From IMG/VR virus record IMGVR_UViG_3300028805_000044: a stretch of 64,000 nucleotides of DNA; one strand, 5' to 3'. This DNA comes from a virus. Its lineage: Duplodnaviria; Heunggongvirae; Uroviricota; Caudoviricetes. Made by a program: the position numbers and the translations under genes. The notes beneath the pieces were generated by a model. It was not told the origin of the DNA and ran no database searches. It saw only the letters and a program-made list of their open reading frames with translations. This document shows positions 38,252-60,736 of this stretch, one piece after another; within the stretch, counting starts at the first letter, position 1; every line of letters begins with the position of its first letter.

Positions 38252-38599
38252 TTGAAGTATATGATAAAACAATGGTTAATAACTGCTGAAGCTCCATTAT
38301 GTGGGACAGAAACACATTACATCGCTTATTCTAAGGAAGATCCATTAAACCAATCTGAAGTGGAAGAAGGAATAATTCAAGATTTATGGGATAATTATTC
38401 TTATCTTTTACATATAGATGATGAAGAGTTTGACTCTGAGGAAGAAAGAGATGAAGCATGGGATCAAGCCTGGGAAGATTGGAGATGTGATTGTAATATT
38501 TATGCAGAAGAAGCAACTGATGAAGAGATAGAAATGAATGCTCCAGGAGGAGATGTTAATTGTTTGGAAATTGTTTACGACGAAAGAAATGAAGAGTAA
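38252..38599 (+). CDS. highly acidic small protein (DNA-mimic or anti-sigma candidate)
   Basis: 115 aa, very Asp/Glu rich (DDEEFDSEEERDEAWDQAWEDW). Confidence 0.4.
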   Translation: MKYMIKQWLITAEAPLCGTETHYIAYSKEDPLNQSEVEEGIIQDLWDNYSYLLHIDDEEFDSEEERDEAWDQAWEDWRCDCNIYAEEATDEEIEMNAPGGDVNCLEIVYDERNEE

Positions 38600-39269: not shown

Positions 39270-39597
39270 TATGAAATACTATCTAGTAACATATGATGGC
39301 AATTATGCCGATGAATTTGATGTATACTTCCATGATGTAATGTCAGAGGAAGAATTGGAAGATGCAAAAAGACTAATAGGCAAAACAGAATGGATTGAAA
39401 GAGAGTTCTGGTTTGGAACCAATGAGAATATCGATGTTAATACAGCAGAACTTATGGAATGTTTAAACGAGTCCAGGGAACTTACTGAAGAGCAACTCAA
39501 AGTTCTACAAGAATTAGGACTTACACATATAAGTTTTGGAGATGGACTCAATTGGGACCATATTATTGATGACGCTTACGATTGGGTAAATGGGTAA
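39262..39597 (+). CDS. hypothetical acidic protein
   Basis: 111-aa ORF. Confidence 0.35.
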   Translation: MTNMKYYLVTYDGNYADEFDVYFHDVMSEEELEDAKRLIGKTEWIEREFWFGTNENIDVNTAELMECLNESRELTEEQLKVLQELGLTHISFGDGLNWDHIIDDAYDWVNG

Positions 39598-40486
39598 ATT
39601 AATTTTATGTCAAGGTATACAAGGCTCAGGTAAATCTACTTGGGCCAAAGCCTGGGCTAAAGAAGACCCAGAACATAGAGTAAGATTAAACTACGATGAT
39701 CTTCGTAATATGATGGGAGAGTACTGGGTTCCTTCTAGAGAAGGAATGCTCAAAGAAATGGAACAAGCCTTTCTACTTAAAGCAACTCAAAAAGACTATG
39801 ATATTGTTATCGACAATATGAATCTTAATCCAAAGACTATAGCTAAATATGAAGAATGGGCCGCACAGAATAACTATGAGATTCAGAAGGTACTATTTGA
39901 CACTCCAGTGGATGAGTGTATTCGGAGGGATCATTTACGTGAAAATCCTATTGGAGAAGTTATAATTAAACGTACTTGGAATACTTATAGAAACTATATT
40001 ATAGGAGAAAGTATAAAGAAGATGAAAGCTAAGGAACTTAAACAGAATCCTAATCTTCCTCATTGTATTCTTGTAGATATGGATGCTACTTTATTCTTAA
40101 ATACAAATGGAAGACCTTTCTATGGTGATGATTTAGAACCTACTGATATTCTAAAGGATGAACCTATATTATCGACTATTACTTTGGTTAAGGCTTACCA
40201 AAATACTGGCAATTTGGTTATTGGTCTTAGTGGAAGAGAAGATAAACCACAAATACGAGCTTGTACAATTAAACAATGTGAGAATCAGGGTATACATTTA
40301 GATGCTTTAATTCTTAGACCTATGGGCTCTCGCAAGAGAGGTGATGCTTCTAAGAAGGAACTCTTTGAAGAGCATATAAAAGGTAAGTATTATGTAGACT
40401 TTGTACTTGATGACTCTACTAAAGTAGTTAAGATGTATAGAGATCTAGGTCTTACTTGTTTACAACCAAATGATGGAAAATTCTAA
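39590..40486 (+). CDS. polynucleotide 5'-kinase/3'-phosphatase (T4 PseT-like)
   Basis: N-terminal kinase P-loop GIQGSGKST and C-terminal HAD phosphatase motif LVDMDATLF. Confidence 0.65.
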   Translation: MGKLILCQGIQGSGKSTWAKAWAKEDPEHRVRLNYDDLRNMMGEYWVPSREGMLKEMEQAFLLKATQKDYDIVIDNMNLNPKTIAKYEEWAAQNNYEIQKVLFDTPVDECIRRDHLRENPIGEVIIKRTWNTYRNYIIGESIKKMKAKELKQNPNLPHCILVDMDATLFLNTNGRPFYGDDLEPTDILKDEPILSTITLVKAYQNTGNLVIGLSGREDKPQIRACTIKQCENQGIHLDALILRPMGSRKRGDASKKELFEEHIKGKYYVDFVLDDSTKVVKMYRDLGLTCLQPNDGKF

Positions 40487-44448: not shown

Positions 44449-45423
44449 ATGAAATTTATTGAACCTTCTGTAGAAATCATCCAGCAAGAACCTGGAATTG
44501 ACGGAATGATGAAGATGATAGAAATGGCTGGACGTACAGCATATAAATCAGAAGATCATATAACAGAAGATTCAGCAAAGAAATTTGTAAAGATGCTTAA
44601 GAATAGAAATCATGGTGCTGCATTAGAGCATGGTACTTGCTATCTTGCTATTCCACGTGAAGTTTGGAATGAAATTGTAGATAATCATGATTTTAACTTT
44701 ATGGATTGTCCATATCAATGGTATGGCTTCGATTATAGAGGAGGAATTGATGGACAAGACCATATTTATCTTACTACCAACTATAGAGTTCTTGTAGAAC
44801 ATAGATATGAACAACTCCTAGATTACATGGTAACTCCTACTGAAGATGAGTTCCAAAGTAATGACTCTTATCAACATTTTCATCGTCGTATTACTGTAAA
44901 GTTTATTTGCGACAGGGGAGTAAGCCACGAATTCTGCCGTCATCGCGTTTTCAGTTTCCTTATGGAATCGACACGCTATTGTAATTATGGTAAGGACAAG
45001 TTTGGTAATCAAATTACCTTTATAATTCCAAGATGGATTCATGATATTCAAGAGAATATAGCATCAACAATTGAACCTACTACTGGTTTTACAAGGGAAT
45101 ATTTTAGAGACTATGAAACTAATGTTCTAATGGTTAATCTTACTACTGTAGATAGAACAGTTTCTCAATATGTAGATACTCTACAGATTATTGAAGACTG
45201 CTATCTAGATATGTTGACACTTGATGATGGAACTAAACTAATTCCTCAGCAAGCTAGACAAATACTTCCAAATGCTCTTAAGACTGAACTAGTAATGACT
45301 GGTACAATAGAGCAGTGGAAACACTTCTTTGATCTTAGATGTGCTGTTTCTGCACATCCCGATGCAAGATATCTTGCTGTACAATTAAAAGAACAATTCC
45401 TTAATAAGGGTTATCTAAAATAA
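44449..45423 (+). CDS. thyX: flavin-dependent thymidylate synthase
   Basis: ThyX signature RHRVFSFLMES (RHR-x7-S). Confidence 0.85.
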   Translation: MKFIEPSVEIIQQEPGIDGMMKMIEMAGRTAYKSEDHITEDSAKKFVKMLKNRNHGAALEHGTCYLAIPREVWNEIVDNHDFNFMDCPYQWYGFDYRGGIDGQDHIYLTTNYRVLVEHRYEQLLDYMVTPTEDEFQSNDSYQHFHRRITVKFICDRGVSHEFCRHRVFSFLMESTRYCNYGKDKFGNQITFIIPRWIHDIQENIASTIEPTTGFTREYFRDYETNVLMVNLTTVDRTVSQYVDTLQIIEDCYLDMLTLDDGTKLIPQQARQILPNALKTELVMTGTIEQWKHFFDLRCAVSAHPDARYLAVQLKEQFLNKGYLK

Positions 45424-46287: not shown

Positions 46288-46498
46288 AGGATTCAAGGGA
46301 ATACTAGAAAACGAAGATTTTAGAAGAATGTGGATGAAAATGCATACTCCTTGGGTACGTAGACATAAAAAAATTGGTCGTAATGAAATATGTCCATTCT
46401 GTGATTCTGGTTTAAAGTATAAACAGTGTGAATGTTATGAAAAACGTTTCAATGGAAAGTATGTATTAGATGAAAAGCATACAAAAGGATGGAAATAA
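46256..46498 (+). CDS. small SEC-C-like zinc-binding protein
   Basis: CPFCDSGLKYKQCEC. Confidence 0.4.
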   Translation: METMTKQQKLEGFKGILENEDFRRMWMKMHTPWVRRHKKIGRNEICPFCDSGLKYKQCECYEKRFNGKYVLDEKHTKGWK

Positions 46499-47094
46499 TT
46501 ACTAAATATGATGTAAATACTCCTATATTCTTCACATCAGATACTCATTTTTGTCATGCTAATATAATTAAGTTTTGTGGACGTCCATTTAAGGATACAG
46601 CTGAAATGAATAATGCTTTAATAGAGAACTGGAATAAAGTAGTAGGTCCAACTGATATAATATATCACCTCGGAGACTTTTGTTTTGCCGGTTCTGTAGA
46701 TTGGCATTCTATTCTTGGACAATTAAATGGAAGAATTCATCTTATATTAGGTAATCATGATGAAAAAAACTTAAGACAAGGATATATGAACTTATTTGAA
46801 AGTGTTAGTTATCAACAACATATAGTTATTGGCCCTGATAATTTTTATTTAAATCATTATCCTTACTTATGTTATCCTGGACATCATTCACATACTTATC
46901 AGTTATTTGGACATATACATAGCAGTCCTTATATATTTGATGGTACTGACGCAGGAAAAGCAAAGAAAATGCTTACTCCAACTCAGTATGATGTAGGAGT
47001 AGATTGGAATAATTTCACTCCAATCAGCTATGATTGTGTAATAAAGAAGTTGCAGAAACAGGTTTATGAAAATAAAAATATGTTTGAGATATAA
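46489..47094 (+). CDS. calcineurin-like metallophosphoesterase
   Basis: Motifs SDTHF, GDF, GNHD. Confidence 0.6.
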   Translation: MEIITKYDVNTPIFFTSDTHFCHANIIKFCGRPFKDTAEMNNALIENWNKVVGPTDIIYHLGDFCFAGSVDWHSILGQLNGRIHLILGNHDEKNLRQGYMNLFESVSYQQHIVIGPDNFYLNHYPYLCYPGHHSHTYQLFGHIHSSPYIFDGTDAGKAKKMLTPTQYDVGVDWNNFTPISYDCVIKKLQKQVYENKNMFEI

Positions 47095-47349: not shown

Positions 47350-47925
47350 ATGAATAGAACTTTAATTATTGTTGATGGTCAGTATGACTTTATTGAAGGT
47401 GGTAAATTAGCAGTACAAGGAGGTAAACAAGCTCTAGATAATATAGTAGAATACCTGAACTCTGGAGAAATTTCTATGGTAATTACTACTCAAGACTGGC
47501 ATAATGGTAAGCATTGTTCTTTTAAAGAGCAAGGTGGAGATTTCCCAGAGCATTGTGTAGAAGGAACCTATGGAGCAGATCTATATGCACCAATCGTAGA
47601 AGCCATCAAGAAAAATAATATACTTTGGTTCAATCTTAAGAAAGGACAGTATATAGAAGAATTTACTGCTTTTACTCATAAGACGGAGGAGTATGCTCAT
47701 TGGAAAGAATTCGGAACTACTGATGATCATAATCCTTACTTTCAGTTTCACGAAGATGAGATTATTGAAATCTGTGGTTTAGCAGGAGATATTTGTGTAA
47801 TGAATACAGCAATAGCTCTAAAAGAGTTAAAGCCTGTAATCATTTATAATCTTACTGCATCTTTAGATGATGGTAATTTCAGAGCCCTTGCCAGTCAGCA
47901 CGGTATTACTTTGGTGGAGGTATGA
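47350..47925 (+). CDS. pncA: nicotinamidase (isochorismatase family)
   Basis: LIIVDGQYDF, metal site QDWH...H, catalytic Cys CGLAGDICV. Confidence 0.75.
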   Translation: MNRTLIIVDGQYDFIEGGKLAVQGGKQALDNIVEYLNSGEISMVITTQDWHNGKHCSFKEQGGDFPEHCVEGTYGADLYAPIVEAIKKNNILWFNLKKGQYIEEFTAFTHKTEEYAHWKEFGTTDDHNPYFQFHEDEIIEICGLAGDICVMNTAIALKELKPVIIYNLTASLDDGNFRALASQHGITLVEV

Positions 47926-48719
47926 TAAAGAATCCAGTTTTAGGAGCAATCGCAGGGGACATGATAGGTGTTCCCTACGAGTTCCTTCGTCATGGAGTTG
48001 TAGTATCTCCAGAATTTCCTTTATGGTCGGACAATTCCACATTTTCTGACGACTCTGTAATGACTTTAGCTGTAGCTAAATGGTTACTAGAAGACGATAG
48101 TTATTCTGTTCAGAATCTTATAGATTGTATGGTAACTCTTGGGCGTAAATATCGTAACAGGGGTTATGGTGGTAATTTTGGAGCTTGGCTAGATAGTAAA
48201 TATCCTCAACCATACAATTCTTGGGGTAACGGTTCAGCTATGAGGGTTAGTCCTTGTGCTTGTGTTTTAGATTCACTGTCTGGAACTCTTGCCCTTGCTG
48301 AAAAATCTGCATCTGTAAGTCACAATCATCTAGAGGGAATAAAAGGTGCACAATGTGTTGCTGAATATATATGGTATGCACTTAGAAAAGAACGTCCAAT
48401 AATTAGAGGATATGATTATAATCTTGATAGAACTCCGCAGCAAATTAGAGATTCTGGATATACATTTAAAGTAAGTTGTCAAGAATCTGTACCAGAAGCT
48501 ATATGTTGTTTCTTAAATAGTAATTCCTATGAACAAACTATAAGAGAAGCAGTACTTCTAAGAGGTGATACTGATACACAAGCCTGTATGGCTGGCGCTA
48601 TTGCTGCGGCATATTGGGGAATGCCTGAAGATATAGCAGAAGAAGCTAAAAGCAGGCTACCTCAAGATCTATATGTGATTTTATCTAAGTTTAGTAAAAA
48701 GTTTAATTTACCGTTATGA
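47922..48719 (+). CDS. ADP-ribosylglycohydrolase family protein
   Basis: N-terminal GAIAGDMIGVPYEF and C-terminal GDTDTQACMAGAIAAAYWG. Confidence 0.75.
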   Translation: MIKNPVLGAIAGDMIGVPYEFLRHGVVVSPEFPLWSDNSTFSDDSVMTLAVAKWLLEDDSYSVQNLIDCMVTLGRKYRNRGYGGNFGAWLDSKYPQPYNSWGNGSAMRVSPCACVLDSLSGTLALAEKSASVSHNHLEGIKGAQCVAEYIWYALRKERPIIRGYDYNLDRTPQQIRDSGYTFKVSCQESVPEAICCFLNSNSYEQTIREAVLLRGDTDTQACMAGAIAAAYWGMPEDIAEEAKSRLPQDLYVILSKFSKKFNLPL

Positions 48720-49891
48720 TTTTAAGTATTTTAGACACTGATTTATATAAGTTTACTACATCGTATGCTTATATGAAACTATACCCTAATGCAATAGGTA
48801 TGTTTGAATATGTAGACAGGAATAATACTGTTTATGATGAATCTTTCTTAACTTATCTACAAAGTCAAATTGACAAGTTAGATGAAGTTAAATTAACTGA
48901 GCAAGAGTTTATTCAAATATTGTCTAATAAATGGTTAATGCGTTTTATTCCCTTTATATATTGGGAGTGGCTTAAAGGCTTTACATTTAAACCATTAAAG
49001 ATAAATATTTGGCTTGATACTGAAGGACATTTACATATTAGAGTAACTGATTATCTTTATAAAGTAACACTTTATGAAGTGCCTATTCTTTACACTGTTT
49101 CTGAATGTTACTATAAGTTCTTTAATATTAATGCAAATATAAATTTAATGTATAAGAACTTAAAAGAGAAGATAGATTATGCTAACGAAAATAATCTTAT
49201 ATTCTCAGAGTTTGGTACAAGAAGAAGATATTCATCAAATATACATGAGTTAGTAATTCAATATATAAAAGAATATTCTAAGACTTGTGTAGGTACTTCA
49301 AATGTTTACTTTGCTCTTAAGTATAATATGATGCCTTGTGGTACATTTCCACATGAGTGGGTTATGTTCCATGGAGCAATATGGGGATATCAACAAGCAA
49401 ACGAACTTGCAATGCGAGACTGGGTACGCTGTTATGATGGTGACCTAGGAACAGTTCTTGTTGATACTTACACTACAAAGTTCTTTATAAATCAGTTCTC
49501 TCGTAAGTATAGTAAACTGTTTGATGGTCCAAGACTAGATTCAGGAGATGAACGAGAATTAGGAGATTTATTTATTGAACATTATAAATCAATGAATATT
49601 AATCCTATGACTAAAACTCTTGTAATGAGTAATGCTCTTGATTTTCCAAAGTTTAAGACTATTAGAGATTACTTTTTAGGTAGAATAAATGTTGTAGCTG
49701 GTATAGGTACTAATCTTACAAATGACTGTGGAGTAACTCCTCTTAACGAAGTAATGAAACTTATAGAAGTACAACAACATTCCAACGCTCCAAAACTTGC
49801 TTGTATTAAACGTTCAGATGATGTGGGTAAGAGATTAGGAGATCCAGTTCAACAGCAAATACTTGATTGTGTATTAGAAAATGCCGCGTAA
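48716..49891 (+). CDS. pncB: nicotinate phosphoribosyltransferase
   Basis: LDTDLYKFT at the N-terminus, FGTRRR, and about 390 aa. Confidence 0.75.
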   Translation: MILSILDTDLYKFTTSYAYMKLYPNAIGMFEYVDRNNTVYDESFLTYLQSQIDKLDEVKLTEQEFIQILSNKWLMRFIPFIYWEWLKGFTFKPLKINIWLDTEGHLHIRVTDYLYKVTLYEVPILYTVSECYYKFFNINANINLMYKNLKEKIDYANENNLIFSEFGTRRRYSSNIHELVIQYIKEYSKTCVGTSNVYFALKYNMMPCGTFPHEWVMFHGAIWGYQQANELAMRDWVRCYDGDLGTVLVDTYTTKFFINQFSRKYSKLFDGPRLDSGDERELGDLFIEHYKSMNINPMTKTLVMSNALDFPKFKTIRDYFLGRINVVAGIGTNLTNDCGVTPLNEVMKLIEVQQHSNAPKLACIKRSDDVGKRLGDPVQQQILDCVLENAA

Positions 49892-50162
49892 AAAGACGAC
49901 TAAAACGGTGGAGACAAAGGAAAAACTTCCCTTGTTTCCACCTAAACCACGAGAAAAACTAACTTCTGGACAAGAACTTTATTGTTATTACCCTCCTGAT
50001 GATACATATCATAAAAGAGTGTATATAAAGGATGGAAAGGATCCCGATTGGGTAGTAACAAAAGATGAGAAAGGTCAGAATTGGTTAGTAAATATAGAAC
50101 ATTTACATGATACTATTTTAACAAAAGAAGAATATGAAAAATTGGGACAAATGGATAAATGA
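49881..50162 (+). CDS. hypothetical protein
   Basis: 93-aa ORF inside the NAD cluster. Confidence 0.35.
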   Translation: MPRKKTTKTVETKEKLPLFPPKPREKLTSGQELYCYYPPDDTYHKRVYIKDGKDPDWVVTKDEKGQNWLVNIEHLHDTILTKEEYEKLGQMDK

Positions 50163-50967
50163 TGCCGTAGAATCCTTAGAGGGATATATAAAGTACTATA
50201 AATTAAAAAGTGTAGTACTTGGTCTTAGTGGTGGAATAGACAGCACTGTTTCTGCAGTAATATGCCACTTAGCTACTAAAAATACACCCGGTGTTACATT
50301 TATTGGGAGAAGCCTTCCTATTAAAAATGCTGGAGATGATACCTCTATAGCAAAGAAACTTGGAGAGAAACTTTGTGATGATTTTGTAGAAGTTAACATG
50401 CTTCCATTCTATAATAACTTTAGAGAACAATTCTACAATGAAGAAGAGGAATCTAAAGCCTCTGTAATAGCAGACGGTAATATTATGGCTAGACTTCGTA
50501 TGATTTATCTTTATCAACTTGCTAATCATTATAAAGGAATAGTTATTGATACAGATAATGCTACTGAGCATGAACTGGGTTTCTATACTGTACATGGTGA
50601 CGTAGGAGATTATAATGTAGGTATTCGTTACTTATGGAAACATGAAATCTGGGAACTTGCAGAAGTTCTTAAGAATTATGCCCCAGAAGCAGCAGATATT
50701 ATACAAGAATCAATAAATCTACAGCCTACCGACGGAAACACTGGAGGTACTGATATAGACCAGATTGCTCCAAGTGCAACATACGGAGATGTAGATTTTA
50801 TTCTTAACTCTCTTACTGATAGATTTAGTTATAGAAAAGCTATTGATGTGTGTGGTCTAGAATTAGTAGAAAGAATTGATGATAGAGTAGCAGCAAATTA
50901 CTATAAACATTATCTTCCTGTTACATTAAAGACTATGCAAAATTGGTTTAATAAAGAAAATATTTAA
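50134..50967 (+). CDS. nadE: NH3-dependent NAD+ synthetase
   Basis: PP-loop LSGGIDS, about 277 aa. Confidence 0.8.
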   Translation: MKNWDKWINDAVESLEGYIKYYKLKSVVLGLSGGIDSTVSAVICHLATKNTPGVTFIGRSLPIKNAGDDTSIAKKLGEKLCDDFVEVNMLPFYNNFREQFYNEEEESKASVIADGNIMARLRMIYLYQLANHYKGIVIDTDNATEHELGFYTVHGDVGDYNVGIRYLWKHEIWELAEVLKNYAPEAADIIQESINLQPTDGNTGGTDIDQIAPSATYGDVDFILNSLTDRFSYRKAIDVCGLELVERIDDRVAANYYKHYLPVTLKTMQNWFNKENI

Positions 50968-51073
50968 TATGGATGAGATAACTCCATTATAGCGGAAAGA
51001 ATACAATAGAAGTATCTTTTAATTTAGAAGGAGAAGAAATTTCTAAAGACTTTATACATTATCGTATTAAACA

Positions 51074-51598
51074 ATGAAAGTAGCCTTTTATTTAGGGAGT
51101 TTTAATCCTCCACATTATGGACATCTTACTGTTATAAATGATGGACTTCAACAATTTGAGATGGATAAAATAATAGTGGTTCCTGCTATGCATAATCCAA
51201 CTAAACAGGAGAAGCCTGCGCCATTCGATATAAGATGTTCGTGGATGGAAAAACTTAGTGCTCAATTTCAGGGCTATGTAGAAGTGGATAGAATCGAGGA
51301 ATTAATGATTCCTCCTTTCTATTCATATGCTACATTACATGCTCTTCGAACTAAGCATTGTAATGATGAAACATACCTACTTGTTGGAGAAGATTTAGTC
51401 GACGAAATAAATGATTGGATGAATGGAGGACAAATACTAAAAGATTGGGACCTATTAGTTGTGGATAGACCACAAGGAGATTTGTCTTCAAGTTTATATA
51501 GAAAATGTCCTATTTTATTTAATTCTTTTATTCCAGAAATTATTAGAGAAGAAGTTTATTATTATTTTAGTGAACATGGAGAAAATAACACTAACTAA
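51074..51598 (+). CDS. nadD: nicotinate/nicotinamide mononucleotide adenylyltransferase
   Basis: GSFNPPHYGHL nucleotidyltransferase (H/T)xGH motif. Confidence 0.7.
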   Translation: MKVAFYLGSFNPPHYGHLTVINDGLQQFEMDKIIVVPAMHNPTKQEKPAPFDIRCSWMEKLSAQFQGYVEVDRIEELMIPPFYSYATLHALRTKHCNDETYLLVGEDLVDEINDWMNGGQILKDWDLLVVDRPQGDLSSSLYRKCPILFNSFIPEIIREEVYYYFSEHGENNTN

Positions 51599-51911
51599 TT
51601 TATGTAATTATATATATGATTGCATAAACAACAATAAAGGTATTTATAGAAATAGTTATGGAGGATTTTTTCTTATAGGTGAAATATCAGTAATGGCTTG
51701 TAATTATTCTAATTTAAAAGAGATTGTTGTTAAGCCTTATACCTATAATCATAATGTAAGAGAAAAGGATCCAATAATCATTTTAAAAATAACTGAATTC
51801 ACAGAAGAAGAATGGTTAGAGTATCAAAAAGCATTACTTGCCATACAGCGTCATAATGAAGATGTAATAATTAAAGCTATTAAGAAGAATGGAAAAGAAT
51901 TGGAGTTATAA
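51459..51911 (+). CDS. hypothetical protein
   Basis: 150-aa ORF overlapping the nadD 3' end in another frame. Confidence 0.3.
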   Translation: MWIDHKEICLQVYIENVLFYLILLFQKLLEKKFIIILVNMEKITLTNLCNYIYDCINNNKGIYRNSYGGFFLIGEISVMACNYSNLKEIVVKPYTYNHNVREKDPIIILKITEFTEEEWLEYQKALLAIQRHNEDVIIKAIKKNGKELEL

Positions 51912-52527
51912 AATTCTTGATGGACCTCACACAGGCAAGACTTTATGGAGTGGAAGATACTGTGCCGTAGCAGCATTTGTATTTAGACGTATAGAGGGCA
52001 TATGGTCAGTTCTAGCCAATCTTCGTGGTCCTGGTACACCAGACTTCCAAGGGTGTTGGAACGCAGTGTGCGGCTTCCTAGAGGCCAATGAGAGTGCTGA
52101 ACAGGGTTGTTCACGAGAAATTTTTGAGGAAACTGGGTATGAGATAAAACCAGAAAAATTTCTGCAAGTATTTACTCACACCGATCCAGAGACTTCAAAT
52201 AATGCTAACGTTACTATAAGACATCTTGCAATATTCTTTGAACACGAATTAGGTCCTAGACAAACACCTAATGGAGGAGAAGACCAGGAAGTCGACGCAG
52301 TAAGTTGGATTGCTATTGATGAAATAGATAATTATAAATGGGCATTTGATCATGAAAAGATTATAAAGGACTTATTCTATAATTATATCTACCCACTTAC
52401 AGAATATTCTCCATTATCTCCTGGTGATTACTTTATGCTTGGTAATAGAAAATGGTTACAGAAGAATCCTTTAGTGAAGAAGATACTTAAAACTAAGGTA
52501 CTTGGAACATTTGAATTATATGATTAA
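51889..52527 (+). CDS. Nudix hydrolase
   Basis: Nudix box GFLEANESAEQGCSREIFEETGY. Confidence 0.75.
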   Translation: MEKNWSYKILDGPHTGKTLWSGRYCAVAAFVFRRIEGIWSVLANLRGPGTPDFQGCWNAVCGFLEANESAEQGCSREIFEETGYEIKPEKFLQVFTHTDPETSNNANVTIRHLAIFFEHELGPRQTPNGGEDQEVDAVSWIAIDEIDNYKWAFDHEKIIKDLFYNYIYPLTEYSPLSPGDYFMLGNRKWLQKNPLVKKILKTKVLGTFELYD

Positions 52528-52957
52528 TATTGATAACTTAATAGCAGAAGCACGTAAAGAGCAAAATCCAATTAAATTAGAAGCATATAAACAAGTTAAG
52601 CAAGAATTCTTACTTAGAAAAACTAAGGGAGAAGATATTAATACAAATACTGAAGTTGCTGTACTTAAGAAACTTGTTGGGCATTATACAGATCAAGCTC
52701 AGATGTACCAAATAAATGGAAGAGAAGAAATAGCAAATGAATATACAGCATATGCTAATGAACTCAAAAAGCTTCTTCCAGAAATGATGTCTGCTTCAGA
52801 AATTGAAGAGAAAGTAAATTATATAATTGAACATAATTTTGATGGAATGCCTACTAAAAAGGACATGGGTAAAATTATCAAAATGTTCAAGGATAGTTAT
52901 TCCAATGCAGATGGTGCAGTACTAGCTAATATAGTCAAAGCAAAGATATTTGTATGA
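52502..52957 (+). CDS. YqeY/GatB C-terminal domain protein
   Basis: 151 aa with a typical YqeY helical pattern, ending DGAVLANIVKAKI. Confidence 0.5.
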   Translation: MEHLNYMINIDNLIAEARKEQNPIKLEAYKQVKQEFLLRKTKGEDINTNTEVAVLKKLVGHYTDQAQMYQINGREEIANEYTAYANELKKLLPEMMSASEIEEKVNYIIEHNFDGMPTKKDMGKIIKMFKDSYSNADGAVLANIVKAKIFV

Positions 52958-53523
52958 TTATAGGTATAGCAGGTAAAGCACAAGCAGGTAAGGATACTAC
53001 TGCTAAAATGTTAGCTTGCTTACTTTCTAATCCTAACTTAACATGGCAAATGTATTGGGAATCTGATATAGTATTTCCACAACAACATTTCGTTGTACAT
53101 TATGCTGACTTATTGAAGGAAATTTCTGGACCAATGCTTAATATGCCTTTTGAGAATTTTAATGATCAAGAGGTAAAACAACGTTATATTCCTTGGCTTG
53201 ACATGACTGTAAGAGAATTCTTACAAAGGTTAGGAACAGGAGTAAGAGTAGCAATTGATTCAGAATTTTGGGTAAAAGCACTATTTAATACTTATGATAA
53301 GAATATCATAGTAGCAGATGTGCGTTTCCCGAATGAAGCAGAAGCTATAAAAGAAAGAGGTGGAAAATTGATTAGAATAGAACGTCCTGGAGCTGGAGCA
53401 GGCAATCACATCAGTGAAACTGCTCTAGACGATTATAAAAGATGGGATATTGTAATTGACAATGTTGGTACACTTGAAGACTTATTTAATGTAGTAAAAT
53501 TTCATGTACAAAACAGTTTATAA
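52954..53523 (+). CDS. phage-type deoxynucleoside monophosphate kinase (P-loop)
   Basis: IIGIAGKAQAGKDT P-loop and DVRFPNEAEAIKERGGKLIRIERPG. Confidence 0.55.
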   Translation: MIIGIAGKAQAGKDTTAKMLACLLSNPNLTWQMYWESDIVFPQQHFVVHYADLLKEISGPMLNMPFENFNDQEVKQRYIPWLDMTVREFLQRLGTGVRVAIDSEFWVKALFNTYDKNIIVADVRFPNEAEAIKERGGKLIRIERPGAGAGNHISETALDDYKRWDIVIDNVGTLEDLFNVVKFHVQNSL

Positions 53524-53530: not shown

Positions 53531-53566
53531 GGGGAGTCCGGTTATCGGGCTCCCCTCTTTTTTTTT
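53531..53566. terminator. bidirectional (convergent) hairpin terminator between early plus block and late minus block
   Basis: GGGGAGTCCG-loop-CGGGCTCCCC followed by T9 on the plus strand. The minus strand has the same hairpin followed by ATTCTTTTTAT. Confidence 0.65.
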
Positions 53567-56500
53567 ACTACTGGGCTTTCTTCCAAGCAGCATATGTATC
53601 TTTACCAGCACGTGCAACAGCAAAATTGCCCATAAATGCATCAGATACAGACTTACGACCTGTTACAACTTTAAGTCCATCTTGCATAACTTTAAGATTT
53701 ACTTCATACATTGGAGAAGCAGTATTATCTCCAAGCCAATCTTTAAAATTTAGAGGACCTCTAAATGAATCGTAAGAACGTCCTCCAGCTTTATAAAGTA
53801 TTTCGGTTGCTAAGTTAGCGATTACTGGATTATCTTTCATTACTTTCTTATAATCCTTATAAGCAGGATCGAGAGCAAATTTAAATATACTAAACAATAG
53901 AAGAGTTACAAACATGTCACTAAGTAACTTAGCGAGACTAGCTCTAACGGTTGGGTTAGCTCTTATATAATCTTTCATTGCTTGTAAACCTCCATCCTTA
54001 GTAATATAGTATATGTCTCTTAATGTGTAAGCAATACCTTGTACAATAGTTGGAACATTATGATATAGAGGCATTCCAGTATCCATTGTAGTAATTCCTC
54101 CATCTTCATCCAAGAATAATGGATTACCAGCCTCGTCAGTCTGTTGTTCAACATTAGAACGATTGGCACTATACTTACCAGGTTTCATAAAATAATTATT
54201 CCAAATACCATTCATCCAAGTAGTATACATACCAAAGAACCACATGAGTGTAGTATGTTCTCCCATAGACTTAAGAGACTTATCGTATGCACCATATATA
54301 TTATCAGCTACTTCCTTTACAGCAAGTATTTCTTTATCAGAATATGGAGCAGGTAAGAAAGTTTCTGCAGTCTCTGGATTAAGATCAATCTATTGTTCAG
54401 GATGTTCAGCATTCCATTCTCTTGCTTTAGACATATAAAGAGCTTTAGCCTATTTATATTCAGTAGAGTCCTTTGGAGTTCCATCTACTAGAGCCTTAAA
54501 TCTCTTATCCTTCTTCCAGTTGTATACAAGAATATCATCCTAAATTTCCCAACCTTCCCAACATCCATCTTTCATACAGCGTGCTACAAAAAGAGTCATT
54601 CTGTTGAGGAAATCAGGTCTACGAAGAGTAGCATATGCCCAGTTTCTATAATTGGTTATACCTCCTCTTCCTACTTTAAGAGATTCTGTACTAGCGAGGT
54701 CTATGTTAGATAGTCTGTAACGAGTTTGTAACTTACTAAGTAAACTAATATTCATAGTATTAGTCATACTGTGAGTAACTACATAAGCATAAGCCTCACT
54801 AAGAGTCTTAGCATCTATATCAGTATTTAATTTAGTTACAGTTCTCATAAAGTTTTCTTCAAATCCCTGGAATACATCACGGAAGAATGAAATCATATTA
54901 CCTCCAAGATTCATAAGAGTTACTTGACTGCGCACTCCAGCAAGAGCACCTGTAAGAACACGTCCAGTCTCACTCTTGATAGTAGTATTAAATACATTAA
55001 CTTTTAAGAAATCTCTAATATATTTTATTTCTCTTTCCATTATTTCTGAATTACCAGATTCTTCTCCCATAAGAGTAAGTTGGAAAAGAAGAGAACGTGT
55101 ACCAATCATAAAGTCTTTAAGTTTGGTGCATTCTACCTATTTAGATAGATATTCAACAAGAATATTTTCGATATTAGTTTCAAAGAAATCTACTCCTTGA
55201 GCATCTATAAATTCTTGTCTAGTTCCTGCTCTGTCCATCTCATCTCCTATATCAAACATATTATGAACATATCCAAGTTTTTCCTTGTCAGCTTCAAGAC
55301 CTTGTTTTATAAGGCTTCTTTCTTGTTCTGTAAGTTTTTCAACCTGTTCATCATAGTATTGTTCTGGATTCTTTATTACATTCCAAACTCTCCTAGCTCT
55401 ACCTTTCCAAGTACTTGCATCTAGATTCTACATAACACGTGTAGAATTAGAAGCTCTCATAAGAGGACACCATAAATATTTAAATCCACCAGCACTTTCG
55501 GCAATAAATTTAGGTATAGCTGGACTATCATAACTTCCAAAGCCGTGCACATCAGTACCTTTATTTCTAATTAAATAGAATTGATAAAGTGCCTGTTTTA
55601 AGAACTTAGCCTCTTCAGGTCTAAGACTACCATCGGTCCAAGGATTCTTAAAGCGCATAGTTTTATTGTTCTATTCATCTCTTTCAAACATATTATCAAA
55701 GAGAGATGCTTCGTTACCGAGAGTAGCATTTTGAGCAAGTCCATAACCTTTAGCCTTTAAGAATTCCATGATGAATCCTCTCATATTCTTAGCATGATAC
55801 TGTTCTACTTCAGTAGCAATACTATTGTATGTAGCAGCTAAGTTATCAGTTACTATACGAATATTCTAATTAGGGATGTGGTTTGTAGTAGACATATGTC
55901 TATATATATCAGTAAGTTCCATCTCATAGTTAAGACGTTCTCCTGTATAATGATGATAGGCATCAGATATTACTCTATAAAGTCTACATAATTTCTATTC
56001 ATTACCATGTCCCATTTGTCCGTTAGCATATCTAGCTATTTCGTCAAATTTCTTAGTTGGAAGTTTTAGATATAAACTATTAAGAAGTTCTTTAAGAATC
56101 ACCGTCTTTTTATAATCTTCATCACTTCCTACAAGATCTGCTAAAGCTTGAAATTTATCTGGAGAATATTCCATCATCTGTCCTTCTCCTTTAGCCTATG
56201 TAAGTAAAGCAAACTCATATAGTACAGCGTCAAGAGGATCGACAAATTGTTCTTTCTTAAGATTTCTAAAGTTATTAGGGAATTCTATATCAGATTCTTT
56301 AGATACAGTATCGATTATCTCTGGAAGATAATTCTTTGTAATGTCACCAATAGCATAGTTTCTTGAGTTACCATTATGACTAAGTACTTTGACTCTTCCA
56401 AGTTTTATGTTTTCCATATCCATAGTTGGAAGAACCTAGTTAAGAAGGATGATAGCACGAATTACTTCTGCATTACCATAATCGCCTCTCAATGTGTTTG

Positions 56501-58223
56501 TTTGTACATCAGTCTTAAATGCACCTAGAAGAGTATGTCTTCCTTTACCAAATGGTATTTCAGCATTACAATCAAAAGAACTAAGGGATATAATATCAAG
56601 TTGTCCTGTTTCCTTGTTCTCCATTAAAATGACATTGTAATCAAGAAGTTCATCGCGTAACTTCCATCTATAAGTCATAGAGCGTTTTCCTGTTCTAGGA
56701 TCTGCAGGTCCCCATTCTATATCATTAAAATAAACATCAAGCATAGTTTTAATAAATCCTCTAGAACTAGATAATCCTTTTAGCTTATCTATAATATCAG
56801 ACTCTGGAACATACACTCCATGTTCTGTTACTTGATTCATTTTACGTATAGCTTCTTTAAGAGTATGTACTGTCTATAAAGTATCATCCTCTATTTCATT
56901 AAGATTATCAACTACTATATCAAGGATATCCTAATTTATATTTTTATTTTTATTAGATTTAGGTCTGTAAGATTTTCCTCCTATAATAACCTCCCATCTA
57001 CCTTTTTCATCATTTACCTCTCTAATAACAAGAGGTTCTGCTTCACCAGCTTCTGGTGCATGTTTAATAAGTTCAATAGCAGAACGGTGAATTCCTTCAC
57101 TTCTCATATTAAGAATTGGGAAGGTATTTTGAAATAATTCATCAGCTTTATCAAAGGTTTCTATAGATACTTTAGGAATTGATACATTACTTGGAATAAA
57201 ATGTCTAGCATGTTTATCGTACTGTCCAAGCATATAATCACCAGTCCTATTTACAGAGATGTTTTGTGGAGCTCCTATTGTTACTTTTTCTAAGTCTCCA
57301 TCTTCGCCGTAAGTCATATGAACAGGAACTATATTAAGTTCTATGTTTTTAACTGGAATTCCATTATAAGCAAGCATCTATTTAAGGAAAGCCATACCAT
57401 AATTATATTTCTTCCACTTATCCTTAGACCAATTATTCATGGTCTATTGAGAAGCTTTAAAATTATAAATATGTAATGTTCCAGATGAATCTACTGATAA
57501 ATAGTCTACGTGACCAACAAGTTCTTTTCCAAGAGCCTCTATTTTAGCTTTAAGCCCTACGTTGCCTATAATAACTGGACCAACTTGTGTGTGATAAATA
57601 TACTGATTTACAAAGTTTTCCATTTGACTCTTTATACCTTCTAACATTGATGTCTTTCCTTCAAATGGAGTCCCATCAACTACTTCAGATACAGCTCTTA
57701 CATAATCAGAAGATTTAGTTTTTGTAGAAATAACTCCAAAACCGTCTATTATTTTGTGGAAAACTACAGAATCCTTCTTAAATTGGTCCATATTTTCAAG
57801 ATGTGTATCTACTTCTTTAGTAGCTGCTTCTTCTGTATATCCTTTATCATGTACAAGACTATCAATTTCTCTCTTTCTAAATTCTTCTTTGTTATAAGGA
57901 CGAACAAGAGGAACTCCATCTATAAGGCAAGCTGGATCCTCAATAAATTCTTGATAAGAAAGAATAGAACCGTCTCCTCCAAGTTCATCATCATATGTTG
58001 AGGCTACTCTAGAAGTAGTCATTATATAGTCATGCTTTACTTCTCCAATTCTAGTTATTATAGAATCTTTATAAGGATCTTTAGAATATACTATATCACT
58101 TATTTTAGATATAGTTTTTGTATCTAAAACTTTTGCGAACTACTCGTCTACGTACTACAATAGTTCTATAAAGGATATATCTTTCTATCCTGTGCTTAGT
58201 ACATCATAAGTACATTCTTTCAT
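53565..58223 (-). CDS. giant late protein A (about 1552 codons), TAG-recoded; virion/ejected-protein candidate
   Basis: One frame (coordinate mod 3 = 0) runs from ATG 58221-58223 to TAA 53565-53567. It is interrupted only by in-frame TAG at 17 positions (58185, 58155, 58140, 57444, 56931, 56436, 56196, 55995, 55866, 55671, 55428, 55137, 54540, 53568 and others in 54267-54539). The start overlaps the gene B stop (TAATG). Confidence 0.7.
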
Positions 58224-60736
58224 TAGTCACACTTTTCTATAATGTCTTTACCTATTTGCTCGCTTATCCAGTTAGCCTTCTATCTTTGAACTTGTATATT
58301 TTTATCTTTAAGAAAACTTATATTATCACTAACGTGTTTAGCTATGTTTGAATTGAATCTCTTCCAAATACCATCAAGAGAACCATCGAAGTCACGTATT
58401 GATTTACCTCTATCTTTTCTATCAAAGATAGTATCCACCATTGCTTTTATTTTGTCATTAGTTGCAAATAAAGAACTTAGATCATAAGGAAGGTTATCTT
58501 CCATAAATTCTCCATATAAATCAGCAACTACTTCTTCTGCTAAGTCCATTCTACTTACATTTGGAAAGTTTTTCATTTTCTTAGCTAAAGCTCTCTATCC
58601 TCTTTCAGTACTGAGAATTTTGTCTATAAGTTCTATGTAGCTCTCCCTAAGTTCTGGATCAGCTTTCATTGCTCCTAAGAACAAGTGTGCATATTCATGA
58701 AATGCATCTGAACCTTTAGCTATAGCCCTATTTATATAGATTTCTCCATTACGAATAAAGGCTCTTACAAGGTTCAAGTCTTCAATTCCCATTTCTGTAA
58801 GTTCTTCTTCTCCTACAATATTTACTGGAACTCCGAATTTTTCTTTCATTTCTACAGCTATACTATTCAATAGCTATATAACTGGAGTTCTCTTTTGAGC
58901 TCTTTTTGTAGTTACAGCAGTTTCATCTGTAGGAATATAGTGTATACGATAACGTCCTTCGTCAACTTTAAATGCTTTACTTACATAATAGAATGAAGGT
59001 TTCTTTGTATCTATGTTAGTAAGTATTTCATTTATTTTCTTTTCATTGGTTCTTGGATATGTAGTTTGTCCTTCTTCTGTAATATTGAGTTCTCTATTTA
59101 TTTCACTTATAAAAATAACAGCTTTTTCTGCTGTATTTATTTTCTGTTTTATAGATTCTTTGGTAGCAGTAGTTATATCTGTCCAAGTATCTATATAGTT
59201 ATAGAAATCTTGAAGAGTTTTGTCCAACAACAAATACTCTTCATCAAACATACTAGTAGCTCTTACATCTAAAGGTATATCTAACATAGAAAATACAGTA
59301 CCTTCAGGTATAAATCTTGGGCTAGCAAAAGTTCTACCTCCTCTTTCCTTTATATCATTACCAATAAAACTTTCTTTAAGATCAATAAAACCATCTTTTC
59401 TGAGATTTCTTGTTAAATAATGATTATCAATCCATTCTTGAGCTTCAATAAGACTAGCAAATCTTATAGCTTGTAAATTTTCATTTATAAAGTAAGGAGT
59501 AACAAAATAATAAGTTTGAGTTTTATCTCCAACTTCTTTTGTTTGACTATAAATATGGTATCCATTTCTAGTTTCTTCCTTTGTAAATGAGGCTACAGTA
59601 TCGTAAGAAAATCCATATAAAGAATGTAAAGTTGGGAATTTATTTTCTAATATAAGACTCTTGCTATTCATACTTACGGGTTTTAGAGATAAAGGATTTT
59701 CATTAGGTTCTAAGAAAGTATTAATAGCATTAAATAGAGTAGTCATTCCCCATTGATCGGAATCATCATCGACATGTCTTGCAAGATAGGCATCTCTTTC
59801 TCTTGTTAGAGCTTCTAAGAATTTCTTTTCTTCGTCATTAAGTCCAGTAATAGCAGATATATGTTCTATTACTTGACCAGCTTTCTTAGAAAATAATTCC
59901 TTAAGAACTTTCTAAGCTGTAAATATATGCGGATAGCGAACTTGTAATTGTTTAGCAAACTCACTCAAATCAAGAGTAAAATCTCCATTTGTACGTCCCT
60001 TTAGACGTTGATTAAACTCATTGAGTATAGGATTTTTATATTGTTTCTTAGATGGAACATCCCTAATAATATTTCCAACTAAATTAAGTATTACATAGGC
60101 AGATCTTCCATTTACTACAGTTTTAGAACTTCTTATTTTACTTTTATCATTTAAAAATGATAACATTAATTCTTCAGGACTCATTTTTTCTTTATCAGCA
60201 ATCTCTTGTAAGTCCTTAGCAAGATCTTCTTCTAATCCTTTTAACCATTCTCCATTTAATACTTTATCTCTAATCTTTAAGTAAGAAGCAAGTTGTACGA
60301 GAGAATCTTTGTCTCCTCTCACTACAAATATTTCTCTTCCACTTTTATCTAGAACTCTTCCGGATACCGGAAATTTAGAATTAAGATCGAGATTATCAAG
60401 TAATAATATAGGAACATTTGTATCTGGAAATTCAATTTCTGGATAAGTGTCCTATATATATTTAGCATTTACATTTGGAACAAGTCCTTCCTTTCCACTA
60501 ATCTTTGAATATGTAACAGCATAAGAAACAGCACTATTATCTTTTAAGTTCTACATAATATCGGACTTAATGCTATTCCATTGATTTTTATGTTTGGCTA
60601 TTATTGCTGCTAATCTTTGTTGGAAGACATCTGCGGGGAGGGAATGTTCTCCCTCCTATCCGTAGATTTCTTCTTCAGGGACTGTAATCCTATGTTCATA
60701 GTCCCCGAACTTAAAAGTTATAGTACAATTCTTCAT
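58223..60736 (-). CDS. large late protein B (about 837 codons), TAG-recoded, contains HExxH zincin motif
   Basis: One frame (mod 3 = 2) runs from ATG 60734-60736 to TAA 58223-58225, with in-frame TAG at 60656, 60551, 60452, 59912, 58874, 58595, 58280. FHEYAHLF lies in the 58595-58870 segment. Start ATG overlaps the gene C stop (ATGA). Confidence 0.65.

Follow-up and report, generated by a model that had tools for sequence, protein, structure and literature searches.

A phage gene cluster encoding the four Preiss-Handler enzymes, with linked Nudix and ADP-ribosylglycohydrolase genes, as a candidate pathway for sustaining NAD+

The 64,000-nt stretch of DNA analysed here (the window; IMG/VR virus record IMGVR_UViG_3300028805_000044) comes from a large gut phage, crAss-like in appearance, with a genome of about 190 kb and TAG recoding in its late genes; a 192,637-bp contig carries an ADP-ribosylglycohydrolase (ARH) identical to the one in the window. 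A set of NAD genes sits in a block of this phage that uses the standard code and serves replication and nucleotide metabolism, between ThyX (44449-45423) and a deoxynucleotide monophosphate (dNMP) kinase, and NrdD and a dUTPase are also encoded within the window. The interval 47350-52527 holds eight ORFs on the + strand (PncA, ARH, PncB, orf93, NadE, NadD, orf111 and Nudix), given here with their neighbours:

46489..47094, + strand, metallophosphoesterase (Metallophos_2-like; PF12850 at 24.7 bits against a cut-off of 27)
47350..47925, + strand, PncA-like nicotinamidase (nicotinamide to nicotinate and NH3; Pfam Isochorismatase, 31.9 bits)
47922..48719, + strand, ADP-ribosylglycohydrolase, ARH3/MJ1187 type (PF03747, 128.8 bits)
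48716..49891, + strand, PncB nicotinate phosphoribosyltransferase (nicotinate and PRPP to NaMN; TIGR01514)
49881..50162, + strand, orf93, small conserved protein of 93 aa
50134..50967, + strand, NadE NH3-dependent NAD+ synthetase (NaAD, ATP and NH3 to NAD+; TIGR00552)
51074..51598, + strand, NadD nicotinate-mononucleotide adenylyltransferase (NaMN and ATP to NaAD; TIGR00482, CTP_transf_like)
51576..51911, + strand, orf111, genome-specific insertion of 111 aa
51889..52527, + strand, Nudix hydrolase, ADP-ribose-binding NrtR/NadM-Nudix clade (PF00293, 59 bits)
52520..52957, + strand, YqeY-domain protein (PF09424, 59 bits)
52954..53523, + strand, dNMP kinase (PF21448, 67 bits; PHROG 139, 2.4e-43)
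53531..53555, + strand, strong intrinsic-terminator-like hairpin (11-bp stem with 8 G-C pairs, then a T run)

A first-pass annotation had described six adjacent, co-oriented enzyme genes in this interval. All six ORFs are present on the + strand and the block is co-oriented, but it is not strictly contiguous: orf93 lies between PncB and NadE, overlapping both, and orf111 between NadD and Nudix. From PncA through ARH, PncB and orf93 to NadE, successive genes share 4-29 nt, ARH overlapping both of its neighbours by 4 nt. Inside the cluster we found no hairpin comparable to that at 53531..53555, which closes the + strand block behind its final gene, the dNMP kinase, and no strong terminator upstream of 53531; the cluster genes are probably co-transcribed. 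Every one of them is under purifying selection, with dN/dS of 0.10-0.22. The metallophosphoesterase gene (dN/dS = 0.12) is a conserved upstream neighbour whose membership of the NAD module is uncertain; most related loci have it upstream of PncA, and in the huge phage LR756500 it adjoins PncB. The YqeY-domain gene, its start at 52520 taken from an outside gene call, is the conserved downstream neighbour and adjoins the module in each of the two main gene orders.

Which enzymes do these genes encode? The six assignments made at first pass are borne out, family or equivalog matches agreeing with PDB relatives; every motif then quoted is found in the translations with its catalytic residues intact, and all four enzymes of the deamidated Preiss-Handler route are accounted for. 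PncB passes the NAPRTase equivalog TIGR01514 (346 bits; cut-off 269.6) and carries LDTDLYKFT and FGTRRR, with TRRR and H213 kept in 83/83 loci. NadE passes TIGR00552 (121.7 bits; cut-off 63.65), has single-domain NH3-dependent enzymes as its top PDB matches and contains SGGIDS (SGGxDS in 70 of 71 loci). PncA and NadD both fall under their NCBIfam equivalog cut-offs, which counts against the pathway proposed below. NadD is slightly under that of TIGR00482 (100.7 against 112.45 bits) and clears Pfam CTP_transf_like; its top PDB match is B. subtilis NaMNAT (1kam, 4e-14), its GSFNPPHYGHL motif is present, HxGH recurs in 64/64 loci, and SSSxYR is conserved within the window's clade. PncA clears Pfam Isochorismatase narrowly (cut-off 27), and its top PDB matches are nicotinamidases (3r2j, 5.5e-20; P. 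horikoshii PncA, 1ilw); QDWH at residues 48-51 and CGLAGDICV at 142-150 accompany an intact triad (D9/K98/C149) and metal ligands (D49/H51/H68), and G[LIV]AGDxCV occurs in 73 of 77 relatives.

Of 83 related phage loci, 61 carry the five-gene core of PncA, PncB, NadE, NadD and Nudix on a single strand and in a span of 3.7-7.4 kb. The order is ABEDN in 55 loci, ANBED in 3 and NABED in 3, where A, B, E, D and N denote the five genes as just listed. Five relatives with amino-acid identities of 60-87% share the window's own gene order; the distant loci L009-L083 are only 25-60% identical to the window. Such an arrangement is not due to chance. Some of the surveyed loci belong to genomes above 200 kb (L009, L070, L073, L074, L079 and L080), and a relative of PncB is encoded in 412 IMG/VR stretches. 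The first-pass annotation had proposed checking the six-gene block in related phages, and what is conserved is this core without ARH. Apart from the window's own clade, ARH turns up in one place, beside PncB in LR756500, a phage unrelated to that of the window. L002 and L006 lack it, as do most of the distant modules, and about 55 complete modules besides L002 are without it; ARH is an accessory of the window's clade, outside the core.

Two small ORFs are interleaved with the enzyme genes. The orf93 product is likewise an accessory specific to the window's clade: it is present in 5/5 close relatives and evolves at dN/dS = 0.22, and the protein collection contains only 28 homologs, each 63-85% identical. 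Its AF2 model (pLDDT 65) combines a disordered basic N-terminus with a small SH3/Tudor-like barrel, and a fold search of the model gave no significant match. No match to orf111 was found by tblastn against L001-L005, where NadD abuts Nudix, or in Pfam, and on contig L084, which is identical, an outside gene caller also calls it, at 111 aa.

The two remaining enzymes belong to families that act on ADP-ribose derivatives. ARH carries the motif GDTDTQACMAGAIAAAYWG, ranks ARH3 (7e-24) and MJ1187 first in a profile search of the PDB, and conserves E20, D43-D44 and D216/D218/T219. The Nudix protein has a canonical box, GFLEANESAEQGCSREIFEETGY, as do 66 of 67 loci. Its AF2 model (pLDDT 89) finds as top Foldseek PDB matches the NrtR Nudix domain with ADPR (3gz8, 5.5e-10), 2fml and the NadM-Nudix ADPRase (2r5w/2qjt), and the profile search returns 2fml (2.9e-12), 3gz8 (4.6e-9) and 2qjt (5e-7); by fold and by sequence profile, its nearest solved relatives are thus ADP-ribose-bound NrtR and the NadM-Nudix ADPRase. 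We predict an ADP-ribose pyrophosphatase, although a Nudix sequence does not disclose its substrate: structures of generic Nudix, NudJ and MutT-like proteins score worse by a factor of only about 100, and the source annotations of homologs switch between MutT and ADPRase. Because it stays on one strand with the NAD genes through all three gene orders, the Nudix gene is part of the module, as had been supposed.

From these identities we infer the enzyme activities, the substrates of Nudix and ARH, and the purpose of the module. The reading we prefer, with a probability of roughly 0.55, is a self-sufficient phage pathway from nicotinamide to NAD+ by the deamidated Preiss-Handler route, coupled to ADP-ribose recycling, that sustains NAD+ against depleting defences. 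PncA would deamidate nicotinamide to nicotinate and NH3, PncB would join nicotinate to PRPP to give NaMN, NadD would adenylate NaMN to NaAD, and the NH3-dependent NadE would amidate NaAD to NAD+. The predicted reaction of Nudix cleaves ADP-ribose to AMP and ribose-5-phosphate, both of which the host could return to ATP and PRPP. The window's clade adds the ARH3-like glycohydrolase, which would release ADP-ribose from conjugates or derivatives with an O- or alpha-linkage. Searches of the window turned up no phage PRPP synthetase, leaving the route reliant on PRPP from the host. The most likely purpose would be to keep NAD+ available while SIR2, TIR and similar defences cleave it to nicotinamide and ADP-ribose.

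Might the cluster instead be a general auxiliary metabolic module, enlarging the NAD(P) pool for replication in a nutrient-limited anaerobe without any specific link to NAD+-depletion immunity, for example to supply reducing power to the neighbouring flavin-dependent ThyX and to other steps of nucleotide metabolism? We regard this as possible, if doubtful. It is a live rival because the module is embedded in a conserved nucleotide-metabolism backbone (ThyX, phosphoesterase ... YqeY, dNMP kinase), alongside NrdD and dUTPase, and its syntenic position is constant in about 55 loci; the module appears to have been inherited vertically in the lineage and not to sit in a variable anti-defence island, which counts against the counter-defence reading. 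The paper on similar clusters in jumbo phages takes them to boost the supply of NAD+ and to complement pathways of the host (PMC11662467). However, the constant link with an ADP-ribose-clade Nudix, here joined by ARH, suggests the handling of NADase products beyond imported niacin; PncA is required only for nicotinamide, itself an NAD+ cleavage product; and all three phage NAD+ pathways tested to date are counter-defence systems.

An unlikely alternative is that ARH, perhaps together with Nudix, has a function separate from NAD+ salvage and shares only expression timing with the NAD genes. ARH would then undo ADP-ribosylation that ART-type defences or toxins of the host place on macromolecules of either partner, phage or host, and Nudix would serve in MutT-like nucleotide sanitising or NAD-RNA decapping. 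The module dispenses with ARH in most loci, the homolog annotations of Nudix vary, and Iyer et al. 2022 (PMC9503650) contend that phage ARG domains favour macromolecular ADP-ribose adducts. Bacterial relatives of the window's ARH lie beside NAD genes in 1 of 80 loci and often beside a Macro-domain protein, a pairing that also points to genuine ADP-ribose processing, in favour of the preferred reading. Against independence stand the survival of the Nudix linkage through rearrangement, the translational coupling of ARH between PncA and PncB and its recurrence beside PncB in an unrelated huge phage, and the window itself, in which no ART, SIR2 or Macro genes were detected. That Nudix is an NrtR-like ADP-ribose sensor regulating phage NAD gene expression is highly improbable, since despite NrtR-family nearest relatives (2fml, 3gz8/3gz5) and a C-terminal extension, helical and about 55 residues long, past the Nudix fold in the AF2 model, its REx2EE catalytic residues are intact while the box of the aligned S. 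oneidensis NrtR is degenerate, many homologs of 160-190 aa lack the extension, and Pfam and NCBIfam equivalog family searches detected no winged-helix domain.

Bacterial Preiss-Handler salvage under NrtR control uses the same four families and chemistry, and there too NAD salvage genes have a genomic link to an ADP-ribose-binding protein of the Nudix family. Bacterial genomes usually have the four genes scattered, and their NrtR, which carries a winged-helix domain, acts as a repressor, whereas here all genes lie within about 5 kb of phage genome and the Nudix catalytic box is intact.

Among phages, pncB-nadD-nadE clusters are already known, by sequence analysis only, from gut jumbo phages with predicted Bacteroidota hosts (Microbiome 2024, PMC11662467). 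Those 'NAD-jumbo phages' resemble the present case in clustering the three genes in gut phages, and both accounts are sequence-based; they are limited to three genes and to genomes >200 kb, whereas the core here adds PncA and the ADP-ribose-clade Nudix, the clade further adds ARH and orf93, and the genome is smaller. The novelty of the module is therefore weaker than the first-pass annotation stated. Its claimed distinctness from NARP1, NARP2 and NadV/NatV does hold, and extends to NARP3. NARP2 of Vibrio phage KVP40 (NadV/Nampt plus the NatV NMNAT-Nudix fusion; Osterman et al., bioRxiv 10.1101/2024.02.11.579819) likewise leads from nicotinamide to NAD+ using PRPP and ATP, and likewise pairs an adenylyltransferase with a NadM-Nudix/ADPRase-clade Nudix, fused there and mirrored here by the order of the neighbouring NadD and Nudix genes; but its two proteins follow the amidated route via NMN, where the present route is deamidated (NA, NaMN, NaAD) and needs four enzymes, and the phosphoribosyltransferase passes the NAPRTase and not the Nampt model. 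NARP1 (Adps and Namat) is also aimed at NAD+ cleavage products and can gain an accessory ADPR-1''-phosphate phosphatase, the Macro protein Adpp of NARP1-AP (bioRxiv 10.64898/2026.01.28.702374), paralleled here by ARH and Nudix; it re-ligates ADP-ribose to nicotinamide via ADPR-PP, whereas here ADP-ribose would be degraded, not reused intact, and Prs-like Adps and Namat are absent from the cluster. NARP3 (the PnuC transporter and NadR; PMC13464706) also restores NAD+, by importing nicotinamide riboside, then phosphorylating and adenylating it; the present cluster has neither gene.

NAD+ rebuilding as counter-defence has been demonstrated experimentally for NARP1 and NARP2 (bioRxiv 10.1101/2024.02.11.579819) and for NARP3 (PMC13464706). 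By analogy with these systems, and from its context, the module described here plausibly has an anti-defence role; it probably sustains NAD+ during infection and counters NAD+-depleting defences.

We read the gene block at 47350-52527 on the + strand as one that would rebuild NAD+ and recycle ADP-ribose, and we favour, at a probability of roughly 0.55, the countering of NAD+ depletion as its purpose. The observation behind this reading, made in the first-pass annotation, is confirmed: all six ORFs that it named are present, the motif quoted for each was found, and its family assignments are upheld by Pfam and NCBIfam profile searches and by solved relatives, although its interpretation as a whole is supported only in part. 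The genes do form a co-oriented block but are not the six adjacent genes first described, as the interval holds eight ORFs, in the order PncA, ARH, PncB, orf93, NadE, NadD, a 111-aa ORF and Nudix, two of which are interleaved among the enzymes:

49881-50162, + strand: orf93, overlapping PncB and NadE and kept in all close relatives
51576-51911, + strand: 111-aa ORF between NadD and Nudix, found in this genome only

Overlaps of 4-29 nt among PncA, ARH, PncB, orf93 and NadE, together with a sole strong terminator-like hairpin at 53531-53555, beyond the YqeY and dNMP-kinase genes downstream of Nudix, suggest that the block and its downstream neighbours are probably one transcription unit, and ARH appears to be translationally coupled within the NAD block. 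All cluster genes stop at TAA or TGA. A sigma-70 promoter scan was uninformative, with 35 hits against the 40.6 expected from shuffled sequence; Bacteroidota-type and phage-RNAP promoters fall outside its model. For orf93 we found 28 homologs at 63-85% identity, only in the window's clade, with a dN/dS of 0.22; its predicted structure, of low confidence (pLDDT 65), combines a basic disordered N-terminus with an SH3/Tudor-like barrel, its Tudor/SH3-like fold matches are not significant, and it has no family hit. The 111-aa ORF has no family match either, and none of the five close relatives has it. Bacterial contamination can be dismissed, as can a recent insert from the host: GC content is uniform across the window at about 0.32 (range 0.31-0.35), the block has phage replication genes on either side, and the module is kept in dozens of viral contigs, with identity to the window proteins of only 25-60% in the distant loci (L009-L083).

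The profile scores of the four salvage enzymes differ. PncB passes the TIGR01514 NAPRTase equivalog (346.2 bits, cut-off 269.55), contains both NAPRTase domains (PF17767 and PF04095), and has H213 (in GTFPHEW) and TRRR (T168-R171) invariant in 83/83 loci; we take H213 to be the His conserved at the ATP-coupled (phosphohistidine) site, and TRRR to be the phosphate-binding motif. NadE passes TIGR00552 (121.7 bits, cut-off 63.65) and is a 277-aa protein whose only domain is NAD_synthase, a glutaminase (CN hydrolase) domain being absent; in the PDB it is matched best by NH3-dependent enzymes, and its PP-loop SGGIDS occupies residues 32-37, with SGGxDS kept in 70 of 71 loci. NadD falls narrowly below the TIGR00482 equivalog cut-off (100.7 bits vs 112.45). 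It carries HYGH at 14-17 and SSSLYRK, corresponding to the nucleotidyltransferase motifs (H/T)xGH and SxxxxR, the HxGH being present in all 64 loci; its best PDB match is the B. subtilis NaMN adenylyltransferase 1kam, and we predict that NaMN is its substrate.

The PncA-like protein is, judged by sequence, the most divergent of the six enzymes. It passes Pfam Isochorismatase (31.9 bits, cut-off 27) and scores below threshold on the PncA equivalog NF008623 (52.7 bits vs 174), and its best PDB matches are nicotinamidases. Its metal site (D49, H51, H68) aligns with D52, H54 and H71 of P. horikoshii PncA and is conserved in all 77 loci, while its triad (D9, K98 and C149, the last in GLAGDIC149V) aligns with D8, K96 and C138 of Mtb PncA, the Cys motif being kept in 73/77 relatives. 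C142 was considered as the nucleophile and rejected, as the Mtb alignment gives C149 in GLAGDICV; the landmark residues of the Mtb sequence in that alignment checked out.

What would accompany NAD+ synthesis is suggested by the two remaining enzymes. The Nudix protein matches PF00293 at 59 bits, reaches the cut-off of none of the NCBIfam models, and has a structure model with pLDDT 89. Its top PDB fold match is the Shewanella NrtR Nudix domain with bound ADP-ribose (3gz8, 5.5e-10), followed by the NrtR-like 2fml and by 2r5w and 2qjt (25% identity), the Francisella bifunctional NMN adenylyltransferase/ADP-ribose pyrophosphatase; generic Nudix enzymes and NudC rank next, at about 1e-7. A sequence profile search of the PDB gave the same ranking (2fml 2.9e-12, 3gz8 4.6e-9, 2qjt 5e-7). 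The Nudix box (Gx5Ex7REUxEExGU; G62...E68...R76 E77..E80 E81.G83) is kept in 66/67 loci, and because it is intact, unlike that of the aligned NrtR, the protein reads as a predicted ADP-ribose pyrophosphatase of the NadM-Nudix clade, with other Nudix classes scoring closely behind. The same difference in the catalytic box speaks against an NrtR-like sensor, which we regard as a minor alternative.

ARH (PF03747, 128.8 bits) has ARH3 and MJ1187 as its nearer relatives, at about 1e-23, with DraG or ARH1 only at about 1e-9. In alignment with ARH3, its residues D43-D44 fall on the DD motif and D216, D218 and T219 on the DxDT motif, and the metal-site residues are conserved in all five phage copies. 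The nearest cellular relatives come from rumen and gut Firmicutes MAGs (43-49% identity), and there a tie to NAD genes was looked for and not found, adjacency occurring in 1/80 genome loci. In these bacterial loci (L086-L165) the subfamily instead has a Macro-domain protein (about 350 aa) as its neighbour in 26/80 cases and, less often, SIMPL or vWA proteins; the recurrent Macro-ARH gene pair of rumen and gut Firmicutes is without a stated function. Since the bacterial relatives pair with a Macro-domain protein and rarely with NAD genes, we predict that ARH is a genuine ADP-ribose-processing enzyme. Its link to NAD salvage is phage-specific, and LR756500, an unrelated phage of 462 kb, likewise has ARH beside PncB.

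With all activities assigned by homology, the block would follow the deamidated Preiss-Handler route. PncA would convert nicotinamide to nicotinate and NH3, PncB would join nicotinate and PRPP to give NaMN, NadD would use ATP to form NaAD, and NadE would complete NAD+ from NaAD, ATP and NH3, the NH3 freed by the first enzyme being that required by the last. Nudix would split ADP-ribose, the other NADase product, into AMP and ribose-5-phosphate, from which the host could regenerate ATP and PRPP. ARH might free ADP-ribose from O- or alpha-linked conjugates or derivatives, and would thereby either feed the same recycling or reverse defensive ADP-ribosylation. Among window ORFs of at least 120 aa, Pfam searches found no PRPP synthetase and no ART, SIR2, Macro or NAD-dependent ligase, the ligase present being ATP-dependent.

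How widely is this arrangement kept? Five IMG/VR contigs (53-195 kb) share, at 60-87% amino-acid identity, the order phosphoesterase, PncA, ARH, PncB, orf93, NadE, NadD, Nudix, YqeY and dNMP kinase, with one close relative (L002) retaining this order but no ARH; one 192,637-bp contig encodes an identical ARH, and the cluster recurs, again identical, on a 103-kb ENA contig. A megablast search of the block against INPHARED phages gave no match, relatives being found by protein-level searches only. A search with the PncB alignment found relatives encoded in 412 IMG/VR stretches, and the best 80 of these, mostly on contigs of 95-190 kb and in a few cases of 200-413 kb, were examined together with three INPHARED records. 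The five-gene core of PncA, PncB, NadE, NadD and Nudix lies on one strand within 3.7-7.4 kb in 61 of these 83 loci, one of them in the human-gut phage MT835470; in this order the core occurs in 55 of the complete loci, with Nudix between PncA and PncB in three and ahead of PncA in three. Several of the incomplete loci stop at contig ends. Of the six genes first described, conservation thus extends to five, with ARH confined mainly to the window's clade. We count Nudix in the core because it remains with the NAD genes through rearrangements. The core module appears to be five genes and old within the phage lineage, with ARH and orf93 as probable later additions in the window's clade, where all genes, these two among them, have dN/dS values of 0.10-0.22, approximate because dS is near saturation. 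In some relatives the module is eroded or missing.

Several further observations concern these loci. One distant locus (L055) has PncA and PncB only, another (L022) is without Nudix, and MT835492 (MT835492.1), a relative by PolA and the RNAP-like ORF, is without PncB; such natural variants are useful controls for how the module is gained and lost. A metallophosphoesterase gene (46489-47094, +; in locus L008, 8951-9334) precedes PncA in almost all related loci, and one adjoins PncB in LR756500; it could be another enzyme processing ADP-ribose or nucleotide derivatives. A YqeY-domain gene (52520-52957, +) keeps its place beside the NAD genes in either of the main gene orders, an observation listed for the window and for the related phage loci L010, L012, L013 and L023; it follows Nudix in most loci but comes immediately ahead of PncA in L012, L013 and L023, and may be functionally linked to the NAD genes.

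From 1 to 53.5 kb all genes lie on the + strand, among them replication genes (helicases, a DnaB-like protein, a primase-like Toprim, an ATP-dependent ligase and PolA) and nucleotide-metabolism genes (NrdD, dUTPase, ThyX and dNMP kinase). Further features of the window are:

4920-5504 and 38538-39269, + strand: SPFH/Band-7 domain protein and von Willebrand factor A domain protein, among early/middle genes
15703-16605, + strand: LAGLIDADG homing endonuclease, just downstream of the DnaB-like helicase gene (14248-15336)
36009-37406 and 39590-40486, + strand: RNA ligase (PHROG 968) and polynucleotide kinase/phosphatase (PNKP) pair
37403-38248, + strand: full-length sigma-70-type factor with regions 1.2, 2, 3 and 4 (PHROG 351, 1.4e-75)
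53565-63999, - strand: three giant ORFs of 1089+, 846 and 1554 aa, open only with TAG read as a sense codon

The homing endonuclease may belong to a mobile intron or be a free-standing homing element. The RNA ligase and PNKP look like an RNA (tRNA) repair pair, possibly a counter to anticodon-nuclease defences, and the sigma factor is unexpected in a phage that seemingly has its own giant RNAP-like block. The giant ORFs (- strand, about 53.6-64.0 kb) form a convergent block and contain 39 in-frame TAG codons, and TAG serves as stop in only 3/57 + strand ORFs of at least 120 codons; we read the - strand region 53565-63999 as late-gene TAG recoding, and no tRNA was found in the window. The position of the NAD genes in the standard-code region fits expression ahead of the recoded late genes. 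Crass-like phages, especially the large-genome Zeta group, are described as having late-gene TAG recoding and a giant transcription block (PMC7886860), a pattern that the recoded giant ORFs match. A DxDxD-like motif, SDYDID, is present in one of them, and PolA is closest to Crassvirales polymerases (Kolpuevirus 50%, others 35-37%). The signature genes TerL and MCP lie outside the window, and in PHROG and tblastn searches the giant ORFs hit no PHROG and matched only MT835470 and MT835492, both unannotated gut phages; the crAss-like membership of the phage is therefore putative.

Three phage NAD+ restoration pathways are supported by experiment, NARP1 and NARP2 (bioRxiv 10.1101/2024.02.11.579819) and NARP3 (PMC13464706), and the difference from NARP1, NARP2 and NadV claimed in the first-pass annotation stands, profile scans having found the defining features of neither NARP1 nor NARP2. 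The cluster holds neither component of NARP1, the PRPP-synthetase-like Adps or the Nampt-like Namat, and the window has no Prs-like protein; the sole phosphoribosyltransferase of the cluster is a NAPRTase equivalog. Whereas NARP2 combines NadV/Nampt with the NMNAT-Nudix fusion NatV, here the NAPRTase, NadD and Nudix are each encoded by a gene of their own; the cluster reaches no more than 15-22 bits on bifunctional NMNAT/Nudix models, and the fusion has an unfused counterpart in the NadD-then-Nudix gene order. Neither PnuC nor the NadR kinase/adenylyltransferase of NARP3 was found in the cluster by Pfam or NCBIfam, the nadR_NMN_Atrans model reaching 27.6 bits vs a cut-off of 341. The claim of a distinct module needs narrowing, however, as pncB-nadD-nadE clusters, with pncA also mentioned, are already reported from gut jumbo phages of >200 kb with Bacteroidota hosts (Microbiome 2024, PMC11662467). 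Phage Preiss-Handler clusters are thus not new as an observation. What appears undescribed in the literature checked is the conserved five-gene core with PncA and an ADP-ribose-clade Nudix, its wide spread in 95-190-kb phages that look crAss-like, the translational coupling of ARH inside the block, and the small orf93. In the main text of Yutin 2021 (PMC7886860) the terms NAD, nicotin-, ADP-ribos- and Nudix do not occur; a text search of the Iyer 2022 survey (PMC9503650), which describes ARG domains as rare in phages, returned neither nicotinamidase nor NadE. Searches for crAss-like phages with NAPRTase, for NARP4, and for phage nicotinamidase with Thoeris found nothing relevant, and the literature checked (these two papers and targeted searches) holds no experiment on any phage Preiss-Handler pathway.

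Why would a phage carry the whole route? We favour counter-defence because the nicotinamide input and the attached ADP-ribose enzymes match both products of SIR2- and TIR-type NADases, because every phage NAD+ pathway so far tested (NARP1, NARP2 and NARP3) works in this way, and because NARP1 is known to gain accessory enzymes for ADP-ribose derivatives. Only tentatively would we go on to suggest that the five-gene core might be a fourth, mechanistically distinct NAD+ reconstitution pathway serving counter-defence in a large crAss-like lineage. Such a pathway would take nicotinamide back to NAD+ along the deamidated route and at the same time recycle ADP-ribose to AMP and ribose-5-phosphate. 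ARH would extend it in the window's clade, as the Macro phosphatase widens NARP1, to ADP-ribose conjugates or to non-canonical products of NAD+ breakdown or signalling. The main rival reading, that the block simply enlarges the NAD(P) pool for replication, seems to us rather unlikely, although the module does lie in a syntenic nucleotide-metabolism block beside ThyX and the jumbo-phage study interprets such clusters so (PMC11662467); the two readings are compatible and not mutually exclusive.

Countering NAD+ depletion, as we favour for this block, would not overturn current thinking, the concept being established and similar clusters having been listed already for jumbo phages. NAD+ depletion is among the commonest bacterial anti-phage strategies, and known crAss-like phages infect Bacteroidota. 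The three pathways shown by experiment to rebuild NAD+ all come from phages of Proteobacteria or Firmicutes. If our reading is true, the attachment of an ADP-ribose-clade Nudix would be explained, and a compact enzyme set would be ready for testing. Moreover, a large lineage of abundant gut phages would rely on another solution, combining the complete bacterial Preiss-Handler route with ADP-ribose breakdown, and the NAD+ arms race would reach phages that look crAss-like.
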